This document shows positions 1-11,921 of a stretch of DNA of 11,921 nucleotides, one piece after another. The translations under genes were made by a program, and so were the position numbers. The notes below the pieces were generated by a model. It made no database searches, was not told the DNA's origin, and worked only from the letters and a program-made list of their open reading frames with translations. How positions within the stretch are numbered: the stretch's first letter is position 1; the number at the start of each line of letters is the position of its first letter. This DNA comes from a virus (lineage: Duplodnaviria > Heunggongvirae > Uroviricota > Caudoviricetes), in the IMG/VR virus record IMGVR_UViG_2606217106_000005, positions 1-11,921 of that record, one strand, 5' to 3'.

Positions 1-60
1 CCTTCTTATTCATAAGGCGGGACACTTTCAGGATTTTGAATTTATTCAATTTTTTCCTTT

Positions 61-92
61 CTCCAAAATCTCTCCAAAACTTTTCCCCAAAA
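61..92. repeat. Three phased direct repeats CTCCAAAA (61-68), CTCCAAAA (72-79), CCCCAAAA (85-92) just beyond the int stop; candidate integrase arm-type sites
   Basis: Read directly; spacing 11 and 13 bp. In lambda attL the P' arm with three arm-type Int sites lies next to the int 3' end; the assignment here is by analogy only. Confidence 0.3.
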
Positions 93-156
93 CCAGGGCA
101 CGCATTTTACAACACTTTTTTCCTGAAATGGTGACGGATATTCCATATGATGTTTG

Positions 157-1275
157 TTAAATAACCAACTTAACCCATTCCTGACCTCGGGTATCGTTAT
201 AGCGATCGGTGGTAGCCTGGACTTTATGTCCCAGTAATGTTTTTGTATCGACACCCTGTGCGCGGTACAACCGTTCTGACAGGGAGCGTTGTTCATGAAA
301 TGTTGGCGGTGTTTTTCCTGCTGGTGGAATTATTCCAGCCAGATCTCGCGCTTTGGCGAAGTAATCGCTCAGGTTGTCTTTACTCATCGGTTTTGGTTGT
401 TTCTGGTGCCTACTATGGATTAGATATGGACTTAATATTCTGTCTCGGCACCCATCAATAACTTCTTTTAACGTTATCCCAATGGCATCACAGCGTAGTG
501 TAAGCGGTAACGCCAGGCGCATTCCGGTTTTTCCCTGGGTGATATGCAAGTGTTCGTTCCACACATCTGAAAAACGCATGTGGCAAATGTCATCACGGCG
601 CTGACCAGTAACAATCGCAAGAAGCATTGCGTTACGGATAAAGTGTTTTTCAGGCGTTGCGTTGTAAATTTTTTGCCAGTCTTCCAGGGTGAGTCTGGCT
701 CTGGTTACTTTAGGGATCGGTTTACGGGTAGCCTCCGGAGGATTCCATCCAGGAGGAACTTCTCCTGCATGCTGTGCTTCTTTATAAATATCAACCCATA
801 ATCCACGATTTACTCTCGCTGTGCTGACCATGTCTTTATCCAGCCAATCATCCAGTATTAATGCAAAGTCTCTTACTTCCAGTTCTTTCAATGGATGGTT
901 TCCCAGACGGGAAACCAGGTATGCAGCCATTCGGGCTTTTTCTTTGTGAGTTGTAGCTGCAATATCTCCATTTTTCAGTCGCGTGTCCTGTATTTTCAGA
1001 TATCGATCAACCCATGCCTTTAATCTGATACCCCGACGTTTTGTTGCTGACGGACTTTCATCAATTTTGCGCATGAAATATTCAGCTTCTGCTGCAGCTA
1101 TTCGCTGATTGGCTGTGGAAGCGATTTTTTCTGCCTTACCTTTGTCTGTTCCGAGTCCGTGAAATTTTCCAGTCACAGGATTTTTATACTGGTAGTAAAC
1201 TCTGCCAGTTCTGCGATCAAACTTTTCGTAAAGACCGGCTACGTCAGTGCTGTTTTTTCGTGGCCTCGGTGACAT
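157..1275 (-). CDS. int: Phage tyrosine integrase, lambda Int family
   Basis: 372-aa ORF. C-terminal motifs PPTFHEQRSLSERLY and LLGHKVQATTDRYNDTRGQEW align with the lambda Int catalytic HxxR box and the nucleophile Tyr region (DPPTFHELRSLSARLY / LLGHKSDTMASQYRDDRGREW). Start overlaps the 3' end of the xis-like gene, as in lambda. Confidence 0.93.
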   Translation of the reverse strand: MSPRPRKNSTDVAGLYEKFDRRTGRVYYQYKNPVTGKFHGLGTDKGKAEKIASTANQRIAAAEAEYFMRKIDESPSATKRRGIRLKAWVDRYLKIQDTRLKNGDIAATTHKEKARMAAYLVSRLGNHPLKELEVRDFALILDDWLDKDMVSTARVNRGLWVDIYKEAQHAGEVPPGWNPPEATRKPIPKVTRARLTLEDWQKIYNATPEKHFIRNAMLLAIVTGQRRDDICHMRFSDVWNEHLHITQGKTGMRLALPLTLRCDAIGITLKEVIDGCRDRILSPYLIHSRHQKQPKPMSKDNLSDYFAKARDLAGIIPPAGKTPPTFHEQRSLSERLYRAQGVDTKTLLGHKVQATTDRYNDTRGQEWVKLVI

Positions 1276-1522
1276 GAGTTAAAATCTCCTTCAGTGCATC
1301 ATCATCGCCAGTATGAATTTCCGGCGCAATTCCCGTTTCACCAGGCCCAACAAATACTGCTCGGCGATCTATCAGCCAACGCCCACGAATTTTTTGTGGC
1401 CTTGGAACGATGTATCCTAGTTTTCCGTATTTCACCAGGGTAGTGTTTGTTATTGGGAGACTGAACCGTTTTGGTTTCCACTCGTCGAGCGTTATCAGGT
1501 ACTGTTCGCTCATGGCTATCAC
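1244..1522 (-). CDS. xis: Excisionase, lambda Xis-like
   Basis: 92-aa ORF directly upstream of int and overlapping it by 32 bp. Motif YLITLDEW...GRWLI resembles lambda Xis YLTLQEW...REYLF. True start may be the internal Met (MSEQYL, codon at 1511-1513). Confidence 0.75.
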   Translation of the reverse strand: MIAMSEQYLITLDEWKPKRFSLPITNTTLVKYGKLGYIVPRPQKIRGRWLIDRRAVFVGPGETGIAPEIHTGDDDALKEILTHVTEATKKQH

Positions 1523-1574
1523 TCCGGAACGCGCCAGTTGCAGAATATCAACGACAACTGGCGACGGTTGAACA

Positions 1575-4046
1575 TTAAAAATCAGCCTGACTCGGGATCA
1601 GTTTTTGCCAGATAACTGAAACGTATTTTGCCTGGTAACGGGCGTCATCAAGTGCATTATGGCGCTCACCTTCGAATGGAATAGCCGTTCTGGCATCGAA
1701 GTCTATGGCTTTCCCCAGCTCAACGATTGTGCGTACATCGCGATCGTTGTAGTAACGCCACGGGCAGGGGATCCCCTGCCGTTCGTATGAACGGCGCAAA
1801 ATCGTGTTGTCGAAGTTGGCTCCATTTCCCCAGACCTGAACAAAAAATTCACCGGAGTTTTCGTCGATAAATTCCCGCAATTGTAACAGTGCATCATCTA
1901 ACGGGATTTCATCGGTCATAATGGCAGATTGCGCTTCGCGTGATTGCTTAAGCCACCATTTAATGGTGTCCCGATCAATGACTCCGCCAGCAGTTTCCAG
2001 ATCGATAGTCTTACTAAATTCCGGTCCCATATCTCCGGTTTGCGGATCGAAAAATATTGCACCTATTGAGATGATCGGGGCATCAGGATTTTTTCCCATG
2101 GTTTCAAGGTCGATCATTAGATGGTCACACGTCCTGCTGGTGGATGTGATTTCTTGATGACCGTTCACCTTAATTGAGTGATCTGCCGTCTCGCCAGTTT
2201 CATTATCGCTATCGTGATGCTGATTGCCGCCAGTGTTCTCTTTGTGTGGATGTTCAGCGCCTTCCATTTCCTCCGGATCATCTTCCTGAACTTCAACCTG
2301 ATACTCTTCATCGAATGTTTCCTGGTATGTTGCGTCGCCCATCACCGCGCCACAATCAGGGCAGTTGCCGCCGCCGGTCTGACCGCAGGCGGTGCAGATC
2401 TTTTCCGGTTCCTGTTGCACTACTGGTTCAGGTTGTTTCGTTTCTGGCTCGTTTTGTTGCGTACTTGGGCTGTTTTGTTCCGCTTTCTGGTCGTTCTGTT
2501 CCGTTTCTTGCTGGTTCTGGTTCACAGAATCGCGGGTCTGGATCCCATTAACCCATTTCGGATCATTCGGGTCGCTAATCCCTTCAACAAATTCACCACG
2601 TGATACTGCAAGCAGTTCATCGGCGTCAGGCTGGCTGATATTGGCTGCCTGCATAATTTTGTTTACTTCGTCAGCGGTAACTTTTACTGACCCTGGTTGT
2701 GCGGTCGTGTCAGATGCACCAGTATTTTGTTGTGAACCTGAGTATGTACCGTTTTTGCGGGCGAAATATTCTTCTTTCGTGATTTCAGTAGCCCCAGCAG
2801 ACAGCGCCTTATCCAGACCAGAAAGTTTGTTTGCGCGACCGTATTTTTCGCCATCCTTGTCGGTGAAGAGGAAGTAGAACGGCCCCTCACGTTCTACAGA
2901 TGGTTCGACTTCCACTTTGCATTCGGTTTTTTCGTTGTCTGGAATTGCCGTTTCCACTGCATCAGTTTCTGGTACTGGCGACGAGAGAGTATCAGTTGCG
3001 CTCTGATTTGTTCCTTCATCTTCAAACACGCCCTTTGTAGTCAGGTATTCAGTAATGTATTTGTTCAGTGCCACAGGGTCTTTGTGAATGTCGATCGGAC
3101 GTTCACGGACAAGGCCAAAAATAGTCTGGCGGTCGTAGCGAAGGGCATCAGGCTGTTTGCGCATTGATGCCGAGATACGCTTCCAGTCTTCGCGGTCGTT
3201 GTCGATAACTTCATTTTTTGCCCAGCGATGGATGCTGCCGTCAATGTTTCCGGCATCCACATCACCAGGCCAGAGAGCGTAGGCCAGTTCGTCATCCAGT
3301 GTTTTCCATGTCTGCTTGTATTCGCGATGAATGGCAGCAATGACCGGGCTGATTTTTCCTGTTGAATTTTCAGTGTGCTGTTGATTGGTTCTGGCGCGGG
3401 CGAGATCAACAACAGACGTGTATTTTCCGGTTTCCTTGCGTTCACCTTCGCGACGTTTTTTCCAGATGCGCATCTCTGCCTGAATTTCGGGCCATTTGGC
3501 ACCAGGCTTACATTTATGCTTAACGCACCCGATGGCATGCAGCTTAAGCTCCGGATACATGGCGTTAACTTCTGGCATTTTCATCAACGCTTCAACGATA
3601 TGTCCGTCGAATGTTGCCATGTCTTCCTGCAACAATTCCTGTGCGTTAATAACCATATCAACGGTGATGTTTTCACATGTGTCGAACTTAACCATGAGAG
3701 CGTTCTGTACTTCAGGGGCCAGCTTGTCAAAAGTGACGTTCATCAGATCGGATTCAGTCTCAACCGGGACAAAAGAAGCAGAATCCTCATCCCAGCGGTT
3801 TTCCTGCATATATTCAGCATCCCATGAATCGAGGGCAGGGCGGGGTATGCCAGGTTTATCCTCGCAGATAATAAATTTATAAGCGCAGTCCTGAGCAGCC
3901 GGATAATGTTCCAGGAACTGCCAGTGAAATTTTGCTCGAGCACGGCGTTCGTCGCCAGCTTCAATGGCTGTGGCTACAGCCACAGCGCCTTCTTCCCTTG
4001 TTGCCAGTTCGTCAGGAATGGCGGCGCAAATAAAGACTTTACTCAT
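1575..4046 (-). CDS. Large phage exonuclease with C-terminal DEDDh (DnaQ-like) 3'-5' exonuclease domain, Cys4 zinc ribbon and acidic low-complexity linker
   Basis: 823-aa ORF with GAGG SD. C-terminal motifs MIDLETMG (Exo I, D-x-E), GNGANFDNTIL (Exo II), HNALDDARYQ (Exo III, H...D) are visible. CTACGQTGGGNCPDCG is a C-x2-C-x8-C-x2-C ribbon. Sits where lambdoid phages carry exo/recombination genes; I recall similar proteins annotated exodeoxyribonuclease VIII-like, but cannot verify. Confidence 0.8.
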   Translation of the reverse strand: MSKVFICAAIPDELATREEGAVAVATAIEAGDERRARAKFHWQFLEHYPAAQDCAYKFIICEDKPGIPRPALDSWDAEYMQENRWDEDSASFVPVETESDLMNVTFDKLAPEVQNALMVKFDTCENITVDMVINAQELLQEDMATFDGHIVEALMKMPEVNAMYPELKLHAIGCVKHKCKPGAKWPEIQAEMRIWKKRREGERKETGKYTSVVDLARARTNQQHTENSTGKISPVIAAIHREYKQTWKTLDDELAYALWPGDVDAGNIDGSIHRWAKNEVIDNDREDWKRISASMRKQPDALRYDRQTIFGLVRERPIDIHKDPVALNKYITEYLTTKGVFEDEGTNQSATDTLSSPVPETDAVETAIPDNEKTECKVEVEPSVEREGPFYFLFTDKDGEKYGRANKLSGLDKALSAGATEITKEEYFARKNGTYSGSQQNTGASDTTAQPGSVKVTADEVNKIMQAANISQPDADELLAVSRGEFVEGISDPNDPKWVNGIQTRDSVNQNQQETEQNDQKAEQNSPSTQQNEPETKQPEPVVQQEPEKICTACGQTGGGNCPDCGAVMGDATYQETFDEEYQVEVQEDDPEEMEGAEHPHKENTGGNQHHDSDNETGETADHSIKVNGHQEITSTSRTCDHLMIDLETMGKNPDAPIISIGAIFFDPQTGDMGPEFSKTIDLETAGGVIDRDTIKWWLKQSREAQSAIMTDEIPLDDALLQLREFIDENSGEFFVQVWGNGANFDNTILRRSYERQGIPCPWRYYNDRDVRTIVELGKAIDFDARTAIPFEGERHNALDDARYQAKYVSVIWQKLIPSQADF

Positions 4047-4139
4047 TTTGTTTTAACCTCATGACAGATTTAAGGATGAACAAATCCCTGCCATTGCTGG
4101 CATATAAGAATGAAACCGGATATTTATTACGGAACTGTT

Positions 4140-4331
4140 TTAAAGACCTGCCGGGATTTCGATATTATCCTGGTGAATAACTTTATCGACCGGGTAACAG
4201 TTACCGGGAATTTTCTGTTCGGTTGCTGCAGTCATACACTCCTGCATTGTCCTGTGAACACTGACTGCAATATCAACTGGCTCTCCGGAAACAAGAAAAA
4301 CTGTCAGAACAAGTGCAAATGCTGTATTCAT
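4140..4331 (-). CDS. Small hypothetical protein (63 aa) with hydrophobic signal/TM-like N-terminus
   Basis: Start ATG overlaps the stop of the upstream small ORF (ATGA, translational coupling). N-terminus MNTAFALVLTVFLVSG is hydrophobic. Located in the early-left region where lambda has kil/cIII-type small genes. Confidence 0.5.
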   Translation of the reverse strand: MNTAFALVLTVFLVSGEPVDIAVSVHRTMQECMTAATEQKIPGNCYPVDKVIHQDNIEIPAGL

Positions 4332-4516
4332 TGCCAGCATCCTTTTTGTATCGGACGTAAACGGGCCAACATTGAAAGAATGCATATTTTATTTAATAGC
4401 TCCCGTTCGTGTTTTCTCTTGTTAATGGCATCTTCAGTAAATACAGGGTTACTGATAGTGACACCAATTTCAAAACAACCTTCAGACGTATTAACGTTTG
4501 GTAATAACGTTTTCAT
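4328..4516 (-). CDS. Small hypothetical protein (62 aa)
   Basis: Internal Met chosen over the 97-aa ORF-track start because it is preceded by GAGGG 7 nt upstream; stop overlaps the next gene start. Confidence 0.45.
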   Translation of the reverse strand: MKTLLPNVNTSEGCFEIGVTISNPVFTEDAINKRKHERELLNKICILSMLARLRPIQKGCWQ

Positions 4517-5005
4517 TATCGCGCCCTCAACAATGAGTTTTGTGATGCGGTGCCTGGTGCCTCCAGGTGACGTTAACCAGTTAACAATTAACGCCGGATA
4601 CAGAGAATCCAACCATAACACTGTTTTTGGTTTTAACTGTTCCGCGTGCGCTTAGCCGCATTCACCGCATCACAAAATTCACTTTAAAAAGGGCGGCAGA
4701 GCAGTCACGGAGTAAAACTGATACCGCCAAACGTCACCAGAAAATTGATAACAGAGGGCGTTGCAGCGGGGTTGTCACTTAAGCGTATGGTCAACCTGAC
4801 AACCCGGTGTCCTCAACGGGGGAAGGAATACCCCCGCCATACTTACCGCCGCGCCATTTCGCGGATTGCCACAACCAGAAGCGCACGGTCGAAGAAATTT
4901 AACGACAAGACTTATATGCAAAGGGATCTCGCCGTGCGCTTTCGTGTTATGCCCTGACTTTTCAGGGTAAATTAACCTGTGGAAACCTGTTTTTACTGGC
5001 GCTAA

Positions 5006-5245
5006 TCAGTTAGCGTTTCTGGCTAACCAGCGATGCGCGGCAGCTTCGGTTTTAAACGTTTTACTTTTGGTATACGTCATCGCGGTAAACGTGCCGTCCT
5101 GATTGGGAAACACGCCACATACCAGAGATTCGTTGTTGCCAAGCTCGATAGTATCCATGCTGACCTCATTTCCCCTTAACGCTGGGGTAGCGGAACTAAA
5201 AACCTGCTGCGCTGTTATACAAAGTGTTCCCGCCGTCATGTTCAT
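5006..5245 (-). CDS. Hypothetical first gene of the early-left operon (79 aa)
   Basis: First ORF downstream of the predicted leftward promoter; GAGG upstream of the MNM start cluster; no family recognised. Confidence 0.5.
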   Translation of the reverse strand: MNMTAGTLCITAQQVFSSATPALRGNEVSMDTIELGNNESLVCGVFPNQDGTFTAMTYTKSKTFKTEAAAHRWLARNAN

Positions 5246-5339
5246 ACGCCTCGGGCTGGCTACTTAATCCCTGACCACTGCCGGGTAACTCTAGGTATTG
5301 CCCTGTATTGTGTGGGACGGGATGGGTTGGTATGGGAAA

Positions 5340-5408
5340 ACTATAGGAAATGCCTAATTGCTTGTCAATAGGCTATGCCTAATGATTTGGGTGCGACCTA
5401 ATAGGTGA
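5340..5408 (-). promoter_or_regulatory. P_L-like early-left promoter with three operator sites (O_L)
   Basis: Minus-strand TTGACA (plus coords 5363-5368), 17-bp spacer, TATAGT (plus coords 5340-5345). Operator-like sites TAGG-N5-CCTA (5343-5355), TAGGC-tat-GCCTA (5369-5381) and CCTAATAGG (5397-5405), centres about 26 bp apart. Confidence 0.6.
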
Positions 5409-5476
5409 TGGTTTGTGGGAGAGGTAGTAGGAGTTAACTAACGGGAACTAGGAATTTCCCGTCGGACCATATAAGT

Positions 5477-5953
5477 TTAAGTTCCTGTCTTGGTGATGTT
5501 CTGGCTTTTCCGTTTTGATTCTTGATTTTTCAGATAGTTAGCTACCTTCATTTCCATTGCGGCAATGTAGGCGCGAACGTCATGATCAACCCAACTAGGC
5601 TCCGTAGCATTTCCAGATAAGAGGAAAGCCACAATTGCTCTTTTTTCATCAGAGGCGGCTTGATAAAGGCTGTTTATGTCTAAAAGTTCACTTTTTGTAT
5701 CTGAAGTGGATGGGGTTGGTATGGGGTATTCGTTAAGCCCCCAATGCTCTGGACCAACCACATCAGAAAAGAAACGCCATAGTTCTGGAAGTTTGTCTTT
5801 ACTTATCGAACCTTTCTTAATCCAGTCATGGATTGATGGTGGTTGGACTTTGAAATGACGTGCGATTTCCGCCTTTGATTTGACGGCTCCTGATGCAATT
5901 TTTTTGTTGATGGCCTGCTCTATCGCTCGGCCTAAGTCTTTACCACTAAGCAT
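5477..5953 (-). CDS. racR: Prophage repressor, RacR-like HTH protein
   Basis: 158-aa ORF between outward-facing promoters. HTH-like segment SKAEIARHFKVQPPSIHDWIKKGS. Length and N-terminus match my recollection of E. coli Rac prophage RacR; followed divergently by ydaS/ydaT-like genes, as in Rac. Confidence 0.8.
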   Translation of the reverse strand: MLSGKDLGRAIEQAINKKIASGAVKSKAEIARHFKVQPPSIHDWIKKGSISKDKLPELWRFFSDVVGPEHWGLNEYPIPTPSTSDTKSELLDINSLYQAASDEKRAIVAFLLSGNATEPSWVDHDVRAYIAAMEMKVANYLKNQESKRKSQNITKTGT

Positions 5954-5981
5954 TGCTTAATAGTCTCCTATGCGCATCGCG

Positions 5982-6050
5982 TTAGGCAATCCCTACTCTC
6001 GAAGCGTTAGGCATAGCCTATTGACAATCGCATTAGGCTAAGCCTAATAT
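5982..6050 (+). promoter_or_regulatory. P_R-like early-right promoter with three operator sites (O_R), including a perfect 17-bp palindrome
   Basis: TTGACA at 6021-6026, 18-bp spacer, TAATAT at 6045-6050. Perfect palindrome ATTAGGCTAAGCCTAAT at 6032-6048 overlaps spacer and -10; TTAGGC-ata-GCCTA at 6007-6020; TTAGGC half-site at 5982-5987. Confidence 0.65.
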
Positions 6051-6077
6051 TATTGTGTGTTTTTTGGAGTTCATTCG

Positions 6078-6401
6078 ATGAAAAAAGATAACTATTCATT
6101 CAAACGAGCTTGTGCTGTTGTCGGTGGGCAATCAGCAATGGCTAGGCTTTTAGGTGTATCTCCTCCAAGCGTAAATCAATGGATCAAAGGTGTACGTCAG
6201 TTGCCTGCTGAGAGATGTCCTGCGATTGAACGAGCAACAAAAGGTGGTGTCCTGTGTGAAGAACTTCGTCCTGATGTTGATTGGACATACTTACGACGCT
6301 CGTCATGTTATTCGCAGAATATGTCGATGAAGCAACCAAATGACGAAAACGATCATACCCGAAGCATCAAGAGGCAAATGATTCATGAAAATCAAACATG
6401 A
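6078..6401 (+). CDS. ydaS: Cro-like HTH protein, YdaS-like
   Basis: ATG at 6078 preceded by GGAG (6066-6069). Motif GGQSAMARLLGVSPPSVNQWIKGVRQLPAERCPAIERAT is typical of YdaS/Cro-like proteins. First gene after P_R. Confidence 0.8.
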   Translation: MKKDNYSFKRACAVVGGQSAMARLLGVSPPSVNQWIKGVRQLPAERCPAIERATKGGVLCEELRPDVDWTYLRRSSCYSQNMSMKQPNDENDHTRSIKRQMIHENQT

Positions 6402-6810
6402 GCACATCCGCATGGCGATGAATGCCTGGGCATATCCTGATGGTGAGAAAGTTCCAGCAGCTGGAATAACCCAGGCTTATTTTGAGTTGGGTATGACGTT
6501 CCCAGAACTGTATGACGACAGCCATCCGGAAGCCCTGGCTCGCAATACCCAGAAAATTTTCCGCTGGGTAGAGAAAGACACCCCTGATGCAGTTGAAAAA
6601 ATTCAGGCGTTGTTACCAGCGATCGAAAAGGCAATGCCACCTTTGCTGGTGGCCAGAATGCGCAGCCACAGTTCAGCTTATTTTCGGGAGCTGGTGGAGA
6701 CGCGGGAACGACTGGTGAGAGACGCTGATGATTTTGTCGCAGTGGCGATCGCTGGTTTCAACCAGATGAATCGTGGTGGCCCTGCAGGAAATATTGTGGC
6801 TGTGCATTGA
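6385..6810 (+). CDS. ydaT: YdaT-like protein, putative toxic partner of YdaS
   Basis: 141-aa ORF overlapping the ydaS stop by 17 bp; GAGG SD; same position and size as Rac prophage ydaT. Confidence 0.7.
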   Translation: MKIKHEHIRMAMNAWAYPDGEKVPAAGITQAYFELGMTFPELYDDSHPEALARNTQKIFRWVEKDTPDAVEKIQALLPAIEKAMPPLLVARMRSHSSAYFRELVETRERLVRDADDFVAVAIAGFNQMNRGGPAGNIVAVH

Positions 6811-6881
6811 CTCGCAATATTCATACCGGATCACTTCCGGCAATTTGTGAGTAAAAAGATTCGGTATCAAAAGAGGTGAGT

Positions 6882-7952
6882 ATGGCTAACGCCTGGCTCA
6901 GATTATGGCATGACATGCCAAATGACCCTAAGTGGCGAACAATTGCCAGGGTGTCAGGGCAGCCAATTGCAACAGTGATGGCAGTGTATATCCACCTCCT
7001 GGTGAGCGCGTCACGAAATGTCACGCGAGGTCACATTGATGTCACGACAGAAGATTTGGCAAGTGCGCTCGACGTGACAGAAGAGGTAATTGATTCAATT
7101 TTGCAGACGATGCAGGGGCGGGTACTTGATGGTGATTTAATCACTGGATGGGAAAAACGCCAGGTGCTTAAAGAGGACAACGGCAATATTTCGCAAACCG
7201 CAAAATCTCCTGCAGAGCGCAAGAGGGCGCAGCGAGAGAGGGAAAGAAAGCGGGAACAAAATGGCGATTGTCACGGCGCGTCACGAAATGTCACGCACAT
7301 GTCACGACGAGTCACGACAGATAAAGATACAGATAAAGATACAGATCAAGAAGATCAAAACACTATGGTCCATGGCGTAAAAAACGCCACGAACCAGGCA
7401 GGGGATGTTCAGACCGTCAATCTTGGTCAGCCAGCAGGCACGACACCGGAAGCCGATTCAGCGTATGCGCTGAAAGCCGATTCGGGCGCTGTGCAGCAGG
7501 TGATGACCGCAAGGCCGGAGCAATCACACCAACTGCAGCAGCCCGAAGCCGATTCCGCCATTCAGCGGGAAGCCGATCGGGTAGTCCCGGAAAACACCGG
7601 GCAGTCTGTGGGACGAGTGGATTATCCGGATGTGTTCGAACAGGTCTGGCGGGAGTACCCGTTGCGTGCTGGGGCAAACCCGAAGAAATCCGCTTTCAGT
7701 GCCTGGAAGGCCAGATTACGCGAGGGGGTGCCACCAGAGGCCATGCTGGATGGCGTGAGGCGTTACGCAAGATACTTGGCGGCTACCGGGAAAACGGGAA
7801 CGGAATTTGTTCAGCGAGCGACGACGTTTTTTGGACCGGACCGGAATTTTGAAAACCCCTGGTTGCTCCCGGTAAGCGGCACGAACAACCAGCGTTGTGT
7901 TAATCATATTTCTGAACCGGACACCGAAATTCCGCCGGGATTCAGAGGGTAA
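6882..7952 (+). CDS. Phage replication initiation protein (replisome organizer, O-like) containing the putative origin
   Basis: ATG at 6882 with GAGG SD. N-terminus AWLRLWHDMPNDPKWRTIARVSGQPIATVMAVYIHLL resembles phage replisome-organizer N-domains. C-terminal FEQVWREYPLRAGANPKKSAFSAWKAR...WLLP resembles the conserved C-domain of phage replication proteins. Iteron clusters lie inside the gene. Confidence 0.75.
   Translation: MANAWLRLWHDMPNDPKWRTIARVSGQPIATVMAVYIHLLVSASRNVTRGHIDVTTEDLASALDVTEEVIDSILQTMQGRVLDGDLITGWEKRQVLKEDNGNISQTAKSPAERKRAQRERERKREQNGDCHGASRNVTHMSRRVTTDKDTDKDTDQEDQNTMVHGVKNATNQAGDVQTVNLGQPAGTTPEADSAYALKADSGAVQQVMTARPEQSHQLQQPEADSAIQREADRVVPENTGQSVGRVDYPDVFEQVWREYPLRAGANPKKSAFSAWKARLREGVPPEAMLDGVRRYARYLAATGKTGTEFVQRATTFFGPDRNFENPWLLPVSGTNNQRCVNHISEPDTEIPPGFRG
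7006..7050 (+). repeat. Iteron cluster 1: four TCAC(G) repeats at one-helical-turn spacing
   Basis: TCACG at 7011, 7021, 7042 and TCACA at 7031; inverted copy CGTGAC at 7073-7078; a 21-bp block GCGCGTCACGAAATGTCACGC is repeated exactly at 7276-7296. Confidence 0.6.
7271..7342 (+). repeat. Iteron cluster 2 (five TCACG repeats) followed by a 12-bp tandem duplication AGATAAAGATAC x2
   Basis: TCACG at 7271, 7281, 7291, 7302, 7312 (spacing 10-11 bp); tandem 12-mers at 7319-7330 and 7331-7342, then degenerate AGATCAAG copies; A/T-rich flank consistent with a DNA-unwinding element. Confidence 0.6.
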
Positions 7953-7989
7953 CAGATTTCAGGTCATGGGGTAATTTTCAGGAGGGCTT

Positions 7990-8412
7990 GTGGCAAAAGT
8001 TTTTACACAAGAAGAGCGGGAAAAAATTAAAGGGCAGGTTGTTGAACTCGTACGCCAGAGTGGGCGCGAGACGTTACGACAACTGGAAACTAAAACTGGG
8101 GCAACAAGATATCTGATGAGCGTTCTGGCCAGAGAGCTGGTTGCCAGTGGCGATGTATACAATTCTGGCTACGGGTTATTCCCGTCTGAACAGGCTCGTA
8201 AAGACTGGCAAAATGCCCGCAAAAAACTCTCAAGGGCAAAGCTGAAGAAACCATCTGCGGTTGATCCGGACCTTATCTGGTCATTACCAGATGGCGAAAT
8301 ACGCCGCTACGACAGGCGTCTGAACATAATCTGTCTCGAGTGCCGGAAGAGCGAAGTTATGCAGCGCGTACTGGCGTTTTATCAGGGGAATTTTGAGGAG
8401 GTGGTGCGGTGA
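7990..8412 (+). CDS. Hypothetical protein (140 aa), first gene of a translationally coupled trio
   Basis: GTG start with GGAGGG SD (7981-7986); stop overlaps the next start (GTGA). Confidence 0.55.
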   Translation: MAKVFTQEEREKIKGQVVELVRQSGRETLRQLETKTGATRYLMSVLARELVASGDVYNSGYGLFPSEQARKDWQNARKKLSRAKLKKPSAVDPDLIWSLPDGEIRRYDRRLNIICLECRKSEVMQRVLAFYQGNFEEVVR

Positions 8413-8663
8413 GTGAATCAAAATGCCAGGTTAATGGCAACAAGATAGAACCATGTGCAGCACTGGCAAAGTCCCTTGAGCATGATGCTGAATACACGAT
8501 GCGAAAAGGTCTGCTGATATACAAAATCTGGAATGAGAGTTTAACTCGCGGTCCTGATTTTGTGATGTTGCGTTCCGGTGAATTTTCTAAATTACCAGTT
8601 CGGGTTTCATTTTGTCCGTTCTGTGGTGAAAGTCTGAAAACGTGGGAGAACAGAAATGAATGA
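8409..8663 (+). CDS. Hypothetical small Cys4 protein (84 aa), possible zinc ribbon
   Basis: GTG start after GAGGAGG; cysteines in CQVNGNKIEPC and CPFCGES suggest a metal-binding ribbon; overlaps both neighbours. Confidence 0.5.
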   Translation: MSESKCQVNGNKIEPCAALAKSLEHDAEYTMRKGLLIYKIWNESLTRGPDFVMLRSGEFSKLPVRVSFCPFCGESLKTWENRNE

Positions 8664-8967
8664 AATTAAAGAAATACCAGTAGTACGTGATGAATATGGC
8701 TGCTGGACGCATCCTGAATATGAAAAATTCTGTGACGGTCGGGAATATATTTCAACGGAAGAGTTTAACGCCTGGATGGAGGAAAATAATCTTCAATACG
8801 TCCTCTGCTTCAGAGATGAAGGATGTGCTGACCTTGATGCGTGTGATGCTGATATTTCTGCATGGGAACCGGAACGACCAGAGGGCAATGGATGGTTTAT
8901 TGGTTCAATACATGACACCGAAGATGGCCCGGTTTGTGTATGGCTGAGAAATAAGGCCGAAGCATAA
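8656..8967 (+). CDS. Hypothetical acidic Cys-rich protein (103 aa)
   Basis: ATG overlapping the upstream stop (ATGAATGA); GGGAGA SD; six cysteines; no family recognised. Confidence 0.55.
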   Translation: MNEIKEIPVVRDEYGCWTHPEYEKFCDGREYISTEEFNAWMEENNLQYVLCFRDEGCADLDACDADISAWEPERPEGNGWFIGSIHDTEDGPVCVWLRNKAEA

Positions 8968-9272
8968 AGGCTATAAACCGACTAACAACTAAATACTGAA
9001 GATTTAAATCAGAAACGATTTTTATTAAATCCTTAACCGGAGGGATTCTGCACCCTCAGAACATCAGGAGGCCGTCTGAAAGGGCGGAACAGATAATGCT
9101 TACGTTGAAACATTTTATCGACATACCAACATGGTTAGCCGTCATTGCTTTTGTTAAAATACACATCCACTTTTCTGTGCAATGTTTAACCACTGGTCAT
9201 ATCAAATGGCATTCATGCGAACCATGATATAGAATCATGGCTTGAGAGAGTCGATGAAAGCGCAACTATGGT

Positions 9273-9851
9273 ATGAGAGACATTGATGTAAGAAAGGCTG
9301 TGCATGCCAAGATTCTGAGAGATCATCATAAAGATCCTGACACCCTAATCATTGATGAGTTTACGATGAATCTAGGGGCTAGCAGAGCTGATATAGCAGT
9401 GATCAATGGGCTTATACATGGTTATGAGTTGAAGAGCAAGAGTGATAACTTGCTCAGATTACCAGCGCAGGTGCAACATTACTCATCAGTGATGGATAAA
9501 GTAACTTTGGTTGTCTCTGATTGCCATCTTTATGATGCTTTAAGCATAGTTCCATCATGGTGGGGGATAAAGCAAGTTACGCAAGGTGCACGGCAAGGTA
9601 TCCATTTAAAAACAATTCGAACTAGCAAGTTGAATCCACAAGTGGACAAACTTTCCTTAACAATGCTTCTTTGGAAAGATGAATTGCTTTCCCTATTAAG
9701 TGATGTAGGGGAGCTACAGAATTTGAAAAATAAACCTAAACGCGTCTTATGGTCAAAACTCGCCAATAGTATGGATGTTGGCGAGCTTCGTGAAGCTGTT
9801 CGAGTTAAACTTAAAGCCCGTAAAGAGTGGCGAGTTGCTCAACAACCTTAG
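9273..9851 (+). CDS. PD-(D/E)XK-type nuclease-fold protein (192 aa), sce7726-like by recollection
   Basis: Motif arrangement IIDEF (E29) ... RADIAVING (D40) ... GYELKSK (E52-x-K54) matches the restriction-endonuclease-like core. Putative extended -10 (TGaTATAGA, 9225-9233) upstream. Confidence 0.7.
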   Translation: MRDIDVRKAVHAKILRDHHKDPDTLIIDEFTMNLGASRADIAVINGLIHGYELKSKSDNLLRLPAQVQHYSSVMDKVTLVVSDCHLYDALSIVPSWWGIKQVTQGARQGIHLKTIRTSKLNPQVDKLSLTMLLWKDELLSLLSDVGELQNLKNKPKRVLWSKLANSMDVGELREAVRVKLKARKEWRVAQQP

Positions 9852-10908
9852 TTATGTGATGGTTTTGCCCAATCCTACGCCATACCTCTGGGCTACCAAA
9901 TTTATAGTTACCAGAGGGATTGGCTTTGTAGGCTTGATACTCGTTTGCATAATATTCTATGTCTCTATCTCCCGCACAGAATGTAGGCCCTGAATATTCT
10001 CGATGAGCAAGAATATCCTCACTATGTTTACCATATTGTTCATAACCAAAGCGATTAGCTACTCTTCCTCGAAATACCCAAAAGTCATTATCTCCAGAGT
10101 ATCTGACGCTGGCAGATACGCTAGGGAATCGCGTCGAAAGCCTATTAAAGTCGGGGTGCTGTACTCCATAATCACTATAAATCACATTTCTGGCAAGTTC
10201 TTTTCTATTCATTAAACTCTGCCATAAAATCCACTCGATTCGAGGTTGAGAATATAGACCAACAGAAATATCACTGAGATCTGTAGGAAATGAACCCCCA
10301 GAAAGAATCACTTTTCTGTATTCATTGAGGTGCGCCAGATTGTTTATCAATCCCATTGCCAAAGTATATAGTTCGCCGGAATTAATTTTATCCTCGGTTA
10401 ACTCATCTCTTAAGTCAATAATTATATCAATATTTGATAAAGGAATTCCCAGATGATTAATGTAATGCGTTATTAATTGTGGGTTAACCAGATCTAACGT
10501 GGTTAATCTCAAGCATATTTCATTCTGCATTAATTCATCAATCGCTCTTTTATAGTTAGATGGGCGAGTTGGTGAACTGACAGGAATAACTCTTATCCCC
10601 ATATCTCTAACTTGATTAACCGCATTTATTATAGGGTAATGATCTTCAGGAGAAATAAAATGCTCTTCAATTAATAATCCATCAATATAAACACCTTGCA
10701 TATCTGAGCAAGATTTTGAGACTTTCTTTCCGAACTCTATAAGAGTCTCGTTATAACTCTTTAAGGCAATACCTGAATCAGGGTCAATTGGCACTGGTTC
10801 AATTTCGAGTAATGGCAAAATTTTTGATTTCTTTTCAATGGATAGCTGCGATAAAGCTGATAACTCAGAACGTTTCGCTTTCAGAATAGGAATATATGAA
10901 ATTGTCAT
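9811..10908 (-). CDS. Beta-protein / sce7725-like family protein (365 aa), function unknown
   Basis: Long ORF with AAGG SD 8 nt upstream of ATG. N-terminal MTISYIPILKAKRSELSAL matches my memory of the conserved start of this family. No Walker or other catalytic motifs recognised. 3' end overlaps the convergent 192-aa gene by 41 bp. Confidence 0.7.
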   Translation of the reverse strand: MTISYIPILKAKRSELSALSQLSIEKKSKILPLLEIEPVPIDPDSGIALKSYNETLIEFGKKVSKSCSDMQGVYIDGLLIEEHFISPEDHYPIINAVNQVRDMGIRVIPVSSPTRPSNYKRAIDELMQNEICLRLTTLDLVNPQLITHYINHLGIPLSNIDIIIDLRDELTEDKINSGELYTLAMGLINNLAHLNEYRKVILSGGSFPTDLSDISVGLYSQPRIEWILWQSLMNRKELARNVIYSDYGVQHPDFNRLSTRFPSVSASVRYSGDNDFWVFRGRVANRFGYEQYGKHSEDILAHREYSGPTFCAGDRDIEYYANEYQAYKANPSGNYKFGSPEVWRRIGQNHHITKVVEQLATLYGL

Positions 10909-11339
10909 GTTAATACCTTATACAGAATCAATTAACAATTAATGGTTCTTCGGACATTGAAATTTATATCGCAAAAATTGGCAAACTCTCCTCGACTACT
11001 CACTTGTGGGTATCCTGGCGTAAAAGGAATGACTTGGCAATACCCGGTGTGATCATAAGTCATTGAAAATGATCATTTTTATCAGTCTTTCTTCCATGAT
11101 GAATGCTAATGCCATTTGATTTGTTGAGGTGAAAACTGTTAAAAATCAAAACGATGTAATTGAAATGAACGTTCGGTAGCATTCACGCTTTAAATGTTTC
11201 TTTTGTGCTGATTGGATGAATTTGGGTCACTTCTGATGAGAGATGTTGCAGGAAAAGAAGTTGGCATTGATCTATTGGATAGTTAGAATTACTGCGGGTG
11301 CTTGAGGCTATCTGCCTCAGGCATGAACACCAAAAGGCA

Positions 11340-11420
11340 GATAGAGAAAAGCCCCAGTTAACATTACGCGTCCGGCAAGACGCTTAACATTAATCTGAGG
11401 CCAATTTCATGCTTTGCACA
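11340..11420 (-). ncRNA. Candidate Sok-like antisense RNA of the hok locus (approximate)
   Basis: Inferred only from the canonical hok/sok organisation (antisense RNA opposite the hok mRNA leader/mok start); no clear promoter or terminator could be pinned down by eye. Confidence 0.25.
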
Positions 11421-11465
11421 TGTAGGTTAGCCTCTTACGTGCCGAAAGGCAAGGAGAAGCAGGCT

Positions 11466-11621
11466 ATGAAGCAGCAAAAGGCGATGTTAATCGCCCTGAT
11501 CGTCATCTGTTTAACCGTCATAGTGACGGCACTGGTAACGAGGAAAGACCTCTGCGAGGTACGAATCCGAACCGGCCAGACGGAGGTCGCTGTCTTCACA
11601 GCTTACGAACCTGAGGAGTAA
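11466..11621 (+). CDS. hokD: Hok-family type I toxin (HokD/RelF-like), 51 aa
   Basis: Translation MKQQKAMLIALIVICLTVIVTALVTRKDLCEVRIRTGQTEVAVFTAYEPEE has the Hok signature (single TM helix, LTRK..LCE.R) and matches my recollection of E. coli RelF/HokD. GGAG SD; in-frame upstream ATG at 11409 gives a 70-aa mok-like extension. A 9-bp inverted repeat (11308-11316 / 11336-11344) lies in the leader. Confidence 0.85.
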   Translation: MKQQKAMLIALIVICLTVIVTALVTRKDLCEVRIRTGQTEVAVFTAYEPEE

Positions 11622-11921
11622 GAGACCAGGCGGGGGAGAATCCCATAAGCGCTAACTTAAGGGTTGAACCATCTGAAGAATGCGACGCCTCGGTGCCTCG
11701 TTAAGACGATGCCTCGCGTTCTTCAATTGCGTTTTGTAGGCTGTCAGGGATACTGTCCCACGAATGGCCACCTGTAAGCTCCAGATGACCATTTTTGTTA
11801 TTCTCCACAACGAGTTAGTTCTTCTTTTCGGATCCGGCACTTCTGGGGGGGGAATCCAGCGATGGCTGGATTATGTCGTCAATTAAAAATGCGGCGAGTA
11901 GATTAGCAAATATCCACGCTT

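Follow-up and report, generated by a model that had tools for sequence, protein, structure and literature searches.

Two overlapping small genes of a lambdoid Escherichia coli prophage are very probably the dicB and ydfD genes of a Qin-type dicBF operon

Introduction

The gene dicB has been known since the 1980s, and studies of 2016 and 2022 reportedly characterized its neighbor ydfD as a gene for a lysis protein. In the Qin cryptic prophage of E. coli K-12, transcription of the operon containing both genes begins at the dicBp promoter upstream of ydfA and is held in check by DicA, the repressor of the prophage; it is induced by the antirepressor Rem, by spontaneous switching, and by urea or heat, and both the processing of the DicF RNA and a ydfABC-dicFB-ydfD transcript have been described (PMC10448788). 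The K-12 DicB protein binds MinC and brings it to ZipA, a protein of the septum, where MinC dismantles the FtsZ ring, which accounts for DicB-induced filamentation (PMC6832061). Via the same interaction with MinC, DicB blocks ManYZ, with a consequent reduction of mannose uptake, and it stops the DNA entry of lambda and other ManYZ-dependent phages, i.e., it brings about superinfection exclusion (PMC6832061).

Expression of YdfD lyses dividing E. coli, and this lysis requires ongoing division, since co-expression of dicB or sulA prevents it (PMC8835842). The reported target is IspG, an enzyme of the MEP pathway: binding of YdfD to IspG has been described from pull-down, size-exclusion chromatography, FRET, and ITC, the last with a Kd of 18 µM; ispG overexpression, or HMBPP as the product of IspG, rescues YdfD-expressing cells; and the reported outcome is a shortage of the isoprenoid (undecaprenyl) carrier for wall synthesis (PMC8835842). 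We regard this target as the weak link of the published account, in that it comes from one laboratory and from binding and rescue data with tagged, overexpressed proteins of modest affinity. According to Lu et al., removal of a single N- or C-terminal residue of YdfD abolishes killing and one-residue changes at the N-terminus already weaken it, and the same authors cite Masuda et al. 2016 for the C-terminal domain alone having kept reduced killing (PMC8835842). As far as Masuda et al. 2016 is represented by that citation, the two reports differ on the need for the YdfD N-terminus.

Identity of the overlapping gene pair

The DNA considered here, hereafter the window, is the whole 11,921-nucleotide stretch of a tailed virus record (Caudoviricetes; IMG/VR IMGVR_UViG_2606217106_000005, positions 1 to 11,921). 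A sequence-only reading of it had drawn attention to two small ORFs overlapping by ATGA, and this description holds to the nucleotide, the outer limits of the pair being exactly 4140-4516. The features of the pair are the following:

4328..4516, minus strand: dicB, 62 aa, with its ATG at 4516 and TGA at 4330-4328
4140..4331, minus strand: ydfD, 63 aa, DUF1482 family, with its ATG at 4331-4329 and TAA at 4142-4140
4328..4331, minus strand: start/stop overlap of dicB and ydfD, ATGA, by direct reading of the sequence
4340..4344, minus strand: Shine-Dalgarno-like AAGGA of ydfD, sequence aaaggatgctggcaATG
4524..4528, minus strand: Shine-Dalgarno-like GAGGG of dicB, 7 nt ahead of the ATG, sequence TTGAGGGCGCGATAATG

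Translation of the minus strand gives MKTLLPNVNTSEGCFEIGVTISNPVFTEDAINKRKHERELLNKICILSMLARLRPIQKGCWQ as the 62-aa product of dicB and MNTAFALVLTVFLVSGEPVDIAVSVHRTMQECMTAATEQKIPGNCYPVDKVIHQDNIEIPAGL as the 63-aa product of ydfD. The window has TCAT at positions 4328-4331 and hence ATGA on the minus strand, so that the stop codon of the former gene and the start codon of the latter have four bases in common. The AAGGA motif of ydfD (4344-4340) lies 8 nt ahead of its ATG and within the final codons of dicB, where it encodes a conserved K-G. In a comparison of loci, AAAGGA is kept at the equivalent place in K-12, E. coli SK6988, and most of the Klebsiella phage copies, and the 4-nt overlap of the two genes likewise recurs in K-12, SK6988, and PPompW (GTGA there). 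Judged from its sequence, this overlap fits translational coupling of the two genes.

We identify the pair at 4140-4516 on the minus strand, with a probability of about 0.93, as dicB and ydfD, the final pair of small genes in the dicBF operon of a Qin-type lambdoid E. coli prophage. A homology search, which the sequence-only reading had suggested as a check, returns the DicB and YdfD families for the two products, with E-values that put both ORFs well outside chance. The first matches the Pfam DicB model end to end (PF05358, E 2.3e-37, 126.9 bits against a cut-off of 27, residues 1-62 of 62 on model positions 1-62) and the NCBIfam model CellDivInhibDicB (NF049927, 131.8 bits against a curated cut-off of 100). 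The second covers the complete DUF1482 model (PF07358, E 2.1e-26, 92 bits against a cut-off of 25, residues 4-61 on model positions 1-57 of 57) and is matched by phrog_1092 over all of its 63 residues (E 6.5e-37, residues 1-63). YebW is the name of a paralogue family of DUF1482. All of the sequence-level defining features that we examined for either family are present, and by these the window proteins are members of the DicB and YdfD/DUF1482 families, beyond mere similarity. Nothing that we found contradicts the identification. Neither protein has a match to the Kil family among the Pfam, NCBIfam, and PHROG profiles, a PDB sequence search with DicB gave a chance match only (E 0.2), and one with a YdfD profile gave no match.

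The alleles of the window are close to those of K-12 MG1655. Its DicB shares 56 of 62 residues (90%) with b1575 of the Qin prophage, which is likewise 62 aa long and a full-length match to the DicB model; the two differ by Q36H, V47L, L54P, M55I, P56Q, and A61W, five of these six substitutions falling within the C-terminal 16 residues. YdfD is identical to K-12 b1576 (annotated as ‘lysis protein’) at 61 of 63 residues (97%), and the K-12 protein is again 63 aa long, keeps both cysteines, and is encoded between dicB and the exonuclease gene. The two differences, S3T and V6A, are both within the hydrophobic N-terminus; this is also the segment on which the published reports on killing differ. 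At the DNA level, positions 4050-4750 (701 bp) have a 100% identical counterpart in E. coli EFF60, where RefSeq lists WP_001358566.1 as dicB and WP_001365098.1 as ‘lysis protein YdfD’, so the exact proteins of the window are already catalogued. The EFF60 prophage around the pair includes int, xis, an exonuclease gene, YdaT, a replisome organiser, and hokD.

Operon and prophage context

Around the pair, the window has the following features, the coordinates of genes and sites being those of the window:

4691..4742, minus strand: DicF small RNA, an antisense regulator of ftsZ and other mRNAs (Rfam RF00039)
5006..5161, minus strand: ydfA-like DUF1391 gene, the first gene of the operon (PF07151, E 1e-28)
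5340..5368, minus strand: candidate operon promoter (equivalent of dicBp/pL), TTGACA-17-TATAGT, called from 11 of 12 consensus matches only
4089..4102, minus strand: terminator-like hairpin in the ydfD-exonuclease interval, from a consensus scan only, with a 5-bp stem and then GGGATTTGTT
1575..4046, minus strand: gene for an 823-aa 3'-5' exonuclease (PF16473, Rv2179c-like domain, E 2.2e-67)
1522..1244, minus strand: excisionase gene (xis), intact
1275..157, minus strand: integrase gene (int), intact
5953..5477, minus strand: repressor candidate, with no Pfam match
Plus strand: divergent genes for a Cro/YdaS-like regulator, YdaT, a 358-aa ORF, DUF977, and further genes

The minus-strand order is thus repressor candidate, promoter-like site, ydfA, DicF, dicB, ydfD, exonuclease, xis, and int, which matches the layout of K-12 Qin (dicA, ydfABC, dicF, dicB, ydfD, ydfE, intQ) and bears out the earlier placement of the two genes in the early-left operon of a lambdoid prophage. 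DicF is recovered over its complete model (76.7 bits against a gathering score of 48, E 6.7e-16, model positions 1-52 of 52). In both K-12 and the window, dicB begins 174 nt 3' of an identical DicF RNA and overlaps ydfD by ATGA; the DicF-dicB spacer (174 nt) and the one between ydfD and the exonuclease gene (92/93 nt) are also identical between the two. The ydfA-like gene has 89.6% DNA identity to the ydfA region of K-12, and the place of the candidate promoter, 5' of this gene, agrees with that of dicBp in K-12 (PMC10448788). The hairpin at 4089..4102 might weakly suggest a terminator between ydfD and the exonuclease gene; the longest transcript detected in K-12 stops past ydfD (PMC10448788). 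On the plus strand, the 358-aa ORF carries the label ‘phage replisome organizer’ in the annotation of relatives.

The window operon differs from that of K-12 in being without ydfB and ydfC, so that the processing of its transcript could differ from that described for K-12, and its repressor gene is a different one as well. On the other hand, its prophage surroundings are more complete than those of Qin, with an intact 823-aa exonuclease gene, xis, and int; the exonuclease, whose EFF60 counterpart is also annotated as such, corresponds at full length to ydfE of K-12, a pseudogene disrupted by IS2E. In a close relative, E. coli ST866, a Rac-type kil gene is flanked by the exonuclease gene on one side and by a truncated dicB on the other, and ydfD is replaced. 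The slot is evidently one in which lambdoid phages swap division inhibitors.

Conservation and selection

Far from being absent from related prophages, an outcome that would have spoken against the sequence-only reading, the pair is widely conserved. The 701-bp stretch has a match in 4662 of 5426 complete E. coli genomes (~86%), with at least 80% of the query covered in 3778 of them and a median of two copies per genome, and the pair is found at 94-98% in sequenced phages such as mEp460, Tritos, HannyBb, and PhiR42_1, with 97-98% for these four. A protein homologue search had, among the best 120 matches listed, only close relatives from E. coli and Shigella; tblastn against phage records recovers homologues of YdfD at 36-48% identity in PPompW prophages and in phages of Citrobacter, Salmonella, and Klebsiella. 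The reading frames are intact down to copies that are 48% identical in protein. In comparisons of the window with K-12, SK6988, and PPompW, ydfD has dN/dS values of 0.24-0.59 and dicB has values of 0.36-0.49, dS reaching 0.95, and these ratios indicate that both frames are under purifying selection. The two cysteines of YdfD, C32 and C45, are respectively invariant and nearly invariant in an alignment of 28 sequences of close E. coli homologues, and both are kept in 9/9 homologues, including the copies from Klebsiella, Salmonella, and Citrobacter phages.

In all of the distant homologues that we examined, the start of ydfD overlaps the stop of a small upstream gene, by 4 nt in the Klebsiella phages and by 1 nt (TGATG) in the Salmonella and Citrobacter phages. 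These upstream partners are 37-66 aa long and belong to phrog_22279 and phrog_3722, and none of them matches DicB even at an E-value of 10. Diverged versions of DicB were considered as an explanation for them and rejected, given the lack of a DicB match and their membership in other PHROG families.

Alternative readings of the pair

Conservation by itself might be put down to the recency of the element, in which case dicB and ydfD would be decaying remnants of a cryptic prophage without a current function. In keeping with this, Qin is defective in K-12 and has the IS2E-disrupted pseudogene ydfE downstream, some relatives, e.g., ST866, have a truncated dicB and a replaced ydfD, and the operon is normally repressed (PMC10448788). 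However, the frames are intact not only in the window but also in copies at dS of 0.6-0.95, with the above dN/dS of 0.24-0.59; the pair is carried by sequenced phage genomes (mEp460, Tritos, and others), the K-12 alleles give strong and specific phenotypes, and the exonuclease, xis, and int genes downstream of the pair are intact in the window. This conservation pattern already largely refutes decay as an explanation, and we hold it to be very improbable. A different objection concerns the products themselves, as the list of ORFs mechanically contains longer frames, namely extensions of 81 aa (ATG at 4385) and 97 aa (GTG at 4621) and a 181-aa ORF on the plus strand (4110..4655), and some metagenome gene callers indeed give versions of YdfD with 81-97 aa. 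The Pfam models span the cores of 62 and 63 aa from one end to the other and nothing beyond them, the ATG at 4385 is not preceded by a Shine-Dalgarno-like motif (ATTAAATAAAAT), the extension of ydfD is a mere three residues in SK6988 and is absent from the homologues in Salmonella and Klebsiella phages, and RefSeq gives 62 and 63 aa in both EFF60 and K-12. The 181-aa ORF has no Pfam match, and no gene is annotated on the opposite strand at this place in EFF60 or K-12. We reject both the extensions and the antisense ORF on account of the fit to the family cores, the lack of conservation of the extension, and the missing Pfam match, and we accord them next to no probability.

The remaining alternative concerns the location of YdfD. 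The sequence-only reading had remarked on a hydrophobic N-terminus followed by a Cys-containing tail, and both are present: the N-terminus reads MNTAFALVLTVFLVSG, residues 4-14 (A4-V14, AFALVLTVFLV) give the best 11-residue Kyte-Doolittle mean of 2.95, and C32 and C45 follow. From these features, it had gone on to suggest an exported or membrane protein, in which case residues 1-16 would be a cleaved signal peptide for Sec export or an anchor, and the Cys tail, which might hold a disulfide between C32 and C45, would harm the envelope from the membrane or the periplasm. Along with the 11-residue value, the 19-residue mean of the window allele (1.87) exceeds the usual threshold of 1.6, G16 is nearly invariant, with V-S-G providing the small residues at -3/-1 after the h-region that would suit a signal-peptidase site, the conservation of both cysteines extends to distant homologues, and the phenotype of YdfD, lysis, is one of envelope failure. 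Nevertheless, a basic n-region is missing, there being no K/R in residues 1-5 of 9/9 YdfD homologues, the window protein included; the hydrophobic run has ~11-13 residues, which would seem short of the 18-20 or more uninterrupted ones of a standard membrane helix, and is succeeded by E17-P18-V19-D20; and the 19-residue mean is 0.77-1.44 in homologues, and just 0.77-1.29 in those from Salmonella, Citrobacter, and Klebsiella phages, which have T, N, and S inside the run. Moreover, the soluble fraction yielded purified YdfD with N-terminal His, GST, or MBP tags without the use of detergent, YdfD is reported to bind the cytoplasmic IspG, with a FRET signal between YdfD-CFP and IspG-YFP in cells, and Cys-less mutants retained this binding (PMC8835842). 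In the best AlphaFold2 model (pLDDT 83), residues 4-12 form not a helix but a β-strand that pairs with residues 18-26 in a hairpin and is followed by a helix (29-38) and three short strands; this is weak evidence, and the strand is not a strong argument against export, since the other four of the five models have pLDDT 52-62 and the alignment is shallow, with 28 sequences and every row at least 73% identical. Foldseek searches with this model returned nothing below an E-value of 0.001 in PDB or BFVD. The best viral matches of the model are uncharacterised small phage proteins. With the absence of a basic n-region, the solubility of the tagged protein, the cytoplasmic partner, and the β-strand model all speaking against it, export is unlikely in our view, and the hydrophobic N-terminus is less likely to be a cleaved signal peptide than to belong to the protein core or mediate an interaction, or at most a peripheral association with the membrane. 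Such a peripheral association is possible.

Functional implications

By analogy with the 90% identical K-12 allele, the DicB of the window would act via MinC and ZipA and mediate ManYZ-dependent exclusion, and its YdfD, given the 97% identity to that of K-12, would be expected to cause division-dependent lysis and to bind IspG. An earlier suggestion that the 63-aa product is a host-killing factor is consistent with the lysis of E. coli by the K-12 YdfD (PMC8835842). The accompanying suggestion of superinfection exclusion carries over to the pair but to its other member: exclusion has been published for the partner DicB (PMC6832061). The ATGA overlap, together with the presence of the ydfD ribosome-binding site inside dicB, would tie the synthesis of YdfD to the translation of DicB. 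Under such a coupling, we propose that the lysis protein YdfD would be made only alongside DicB, the division inhibitor that restrains it.

That the two genes are named and studied and are found in most E. coli genomes makes the finding an ordinary one, albeit real, and the pair is already known. As a discovery it is of small importance, both genes having been named and characterized before. The sequence-only reading reached the correct functional class by inference from position and composition; what it overlooked is that these are named, characterized genes present in ~86% of complete E. coli genomes. The one idea here that is still mildly novel is that of a two-gene module with varying partners. 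In its full form, it would have the N-terminus of YdfD as the first strand of a small, compact β-β-α-β domain and the ydfD-type genes as two-gene modules with restraining upstream partners, a combination that we consider speculative and rather improbable. If it were true, the DUF1482 family would comprise translationally coupled pairs of a killer and its restraint in lambdoid early-left operons, with the upstream product generally holding back or timing the lysis protein in the way that DicB does in E. coli.

Comparison with known systems

DicB and the Kil proteins of lambda and Rac are alike in occupying the early-left slot and in having host cell division as their target process. They differ in the point of attack: Kil targets FtsZ, with a dependence on ZipA, whereas DicB acts instead via MinC. 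A tailed temperate phage such as this one has a late holin-endolysin cassette of its own for lysis, and YdfD, as a product of the early operon, is hence not the lysis system of its phage.

Lu et al. liken YdfD to the single-gene lysis proteins, viz., phiX174 E, Qβ A2, and LysM, which act on MraY, MurA, and MurJ, respectively (PMC8835842). We found no relation of YdfD to these proteins in sequence or fold by PDB sequence search and Foldseek. The likeness is one of strategy, in that E, A2, and LysM, as YdfD reportedly does, block the supply of wall synthesis and do not degrade the wall. The differences lie in role and target: E, A2, and LysM are the actual lysis systems of their phages, whereas YdfD is an accessory of the early operon, and its reported target is another one, the soluble enzyme IspG of the cytoplasm, which acts upstream of the lipid carrier.

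The dicB-ydfD position and distant ydfD homologues

In the relative E. coli ST866 (L010), whose prophage is elsewhere 97% identical to that in the window, the dicB-ydfD slot (5670-6001 of that locus) is occupied by a Rac-type kil gene and an N-terminal fragment of dicB, which shows that one division inhibitor has been swapped for another at this position. Distant homologues of ydfD (36-45% identity) are found around position 1201 of the Citrobacter, Salmonella, and Klebsiella phage loci (L005-L009). These retain the start/stop overlap, of 4 nt or 1 nt, with a small upstream gene, the 37-66-aa product of which (phrog_22279 or phrog_3722) is unrelated to DicB. In E. coli and most of the Klebsiella copies, the C-terminal end of the upstream protein contains ...K-G..., encoded by AAAGGA, which is also the ribosome-binding site of ydfD.

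A shorter dicBF operon and its neighbors

The K-12 Qin prophage and EFF60, an E. coli with an identical 701-bp dicB-ydfD stretch, both carry ydfB and ydfC, whereas the window prophage lacks both genes between ydfA and DicF (4743-5005, minus strand), and the distance from the ydfA stop to DicF is 263 nt as against 718 nt in K-12; its dicBF operon is therefore a shorter variant. At the DNA level, homology to K-12 is lost at about window position 5015 and regained at about 4970, with an unmatched junction of roughly 45 nt between the homologous parts.

The window further encodes:

1575-4046, minus strand: intact gene for an 823-aa exonuclease
9273-9851, plus strand, and 9811-10908, minus strand: convergent gene pair between the replication genes and hok
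11296-11471 and 11409-11621, plus strand: hok/sok module, a type I toxin-antitoxin system (sok RNA and a Hok/Gef-family ORF)

The exonuclease combines a long, acidic, Q/E/T-rich middle region with a C-terminal Rv2179c-like 3'-5' exonuclease domain; its K-12 counterpart is the pseudogene ydfE, disrupted by IS2E. The members of the convergent pair are a protein of 365 aa that matches 'Beta protein' (PF14350) at E 3.8e-52 and a 192-aa ORF annotated in a relative as 'sce7726 family protein'; the pair looks like accessory cargo and may be related to defence. The sok RNA scores 119.8 bits (Rfam gathering score 59), and the ORF overlapping it matches the Hok/Gef family (E 2.7e-23), its counterpart in relatives being hokD.

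Immunity region and comparison with Qin

5477-5953, minus strand: repressor candidate, a 158-aa ORF with an HTH-like segment, adjoining the operon promoter
6057-6401, plus strand: YdaS/Cro-like gene, divergent from the repressor candidate and followed by YdaT

No Pfam family matches the repressor candidate, and its DNA shows no similarity to K-12 dicA. With a repressor candidate unlike dicA, and a YdaS/Cro-like gene plus YdaT on the divergent side, this prophage has an immunity region of another type than that of Qin. Despite this, the dicF-dicB-ydfD cargo is nearly identical to that of Qin, a combination that is typical lambdoid mosaicism.
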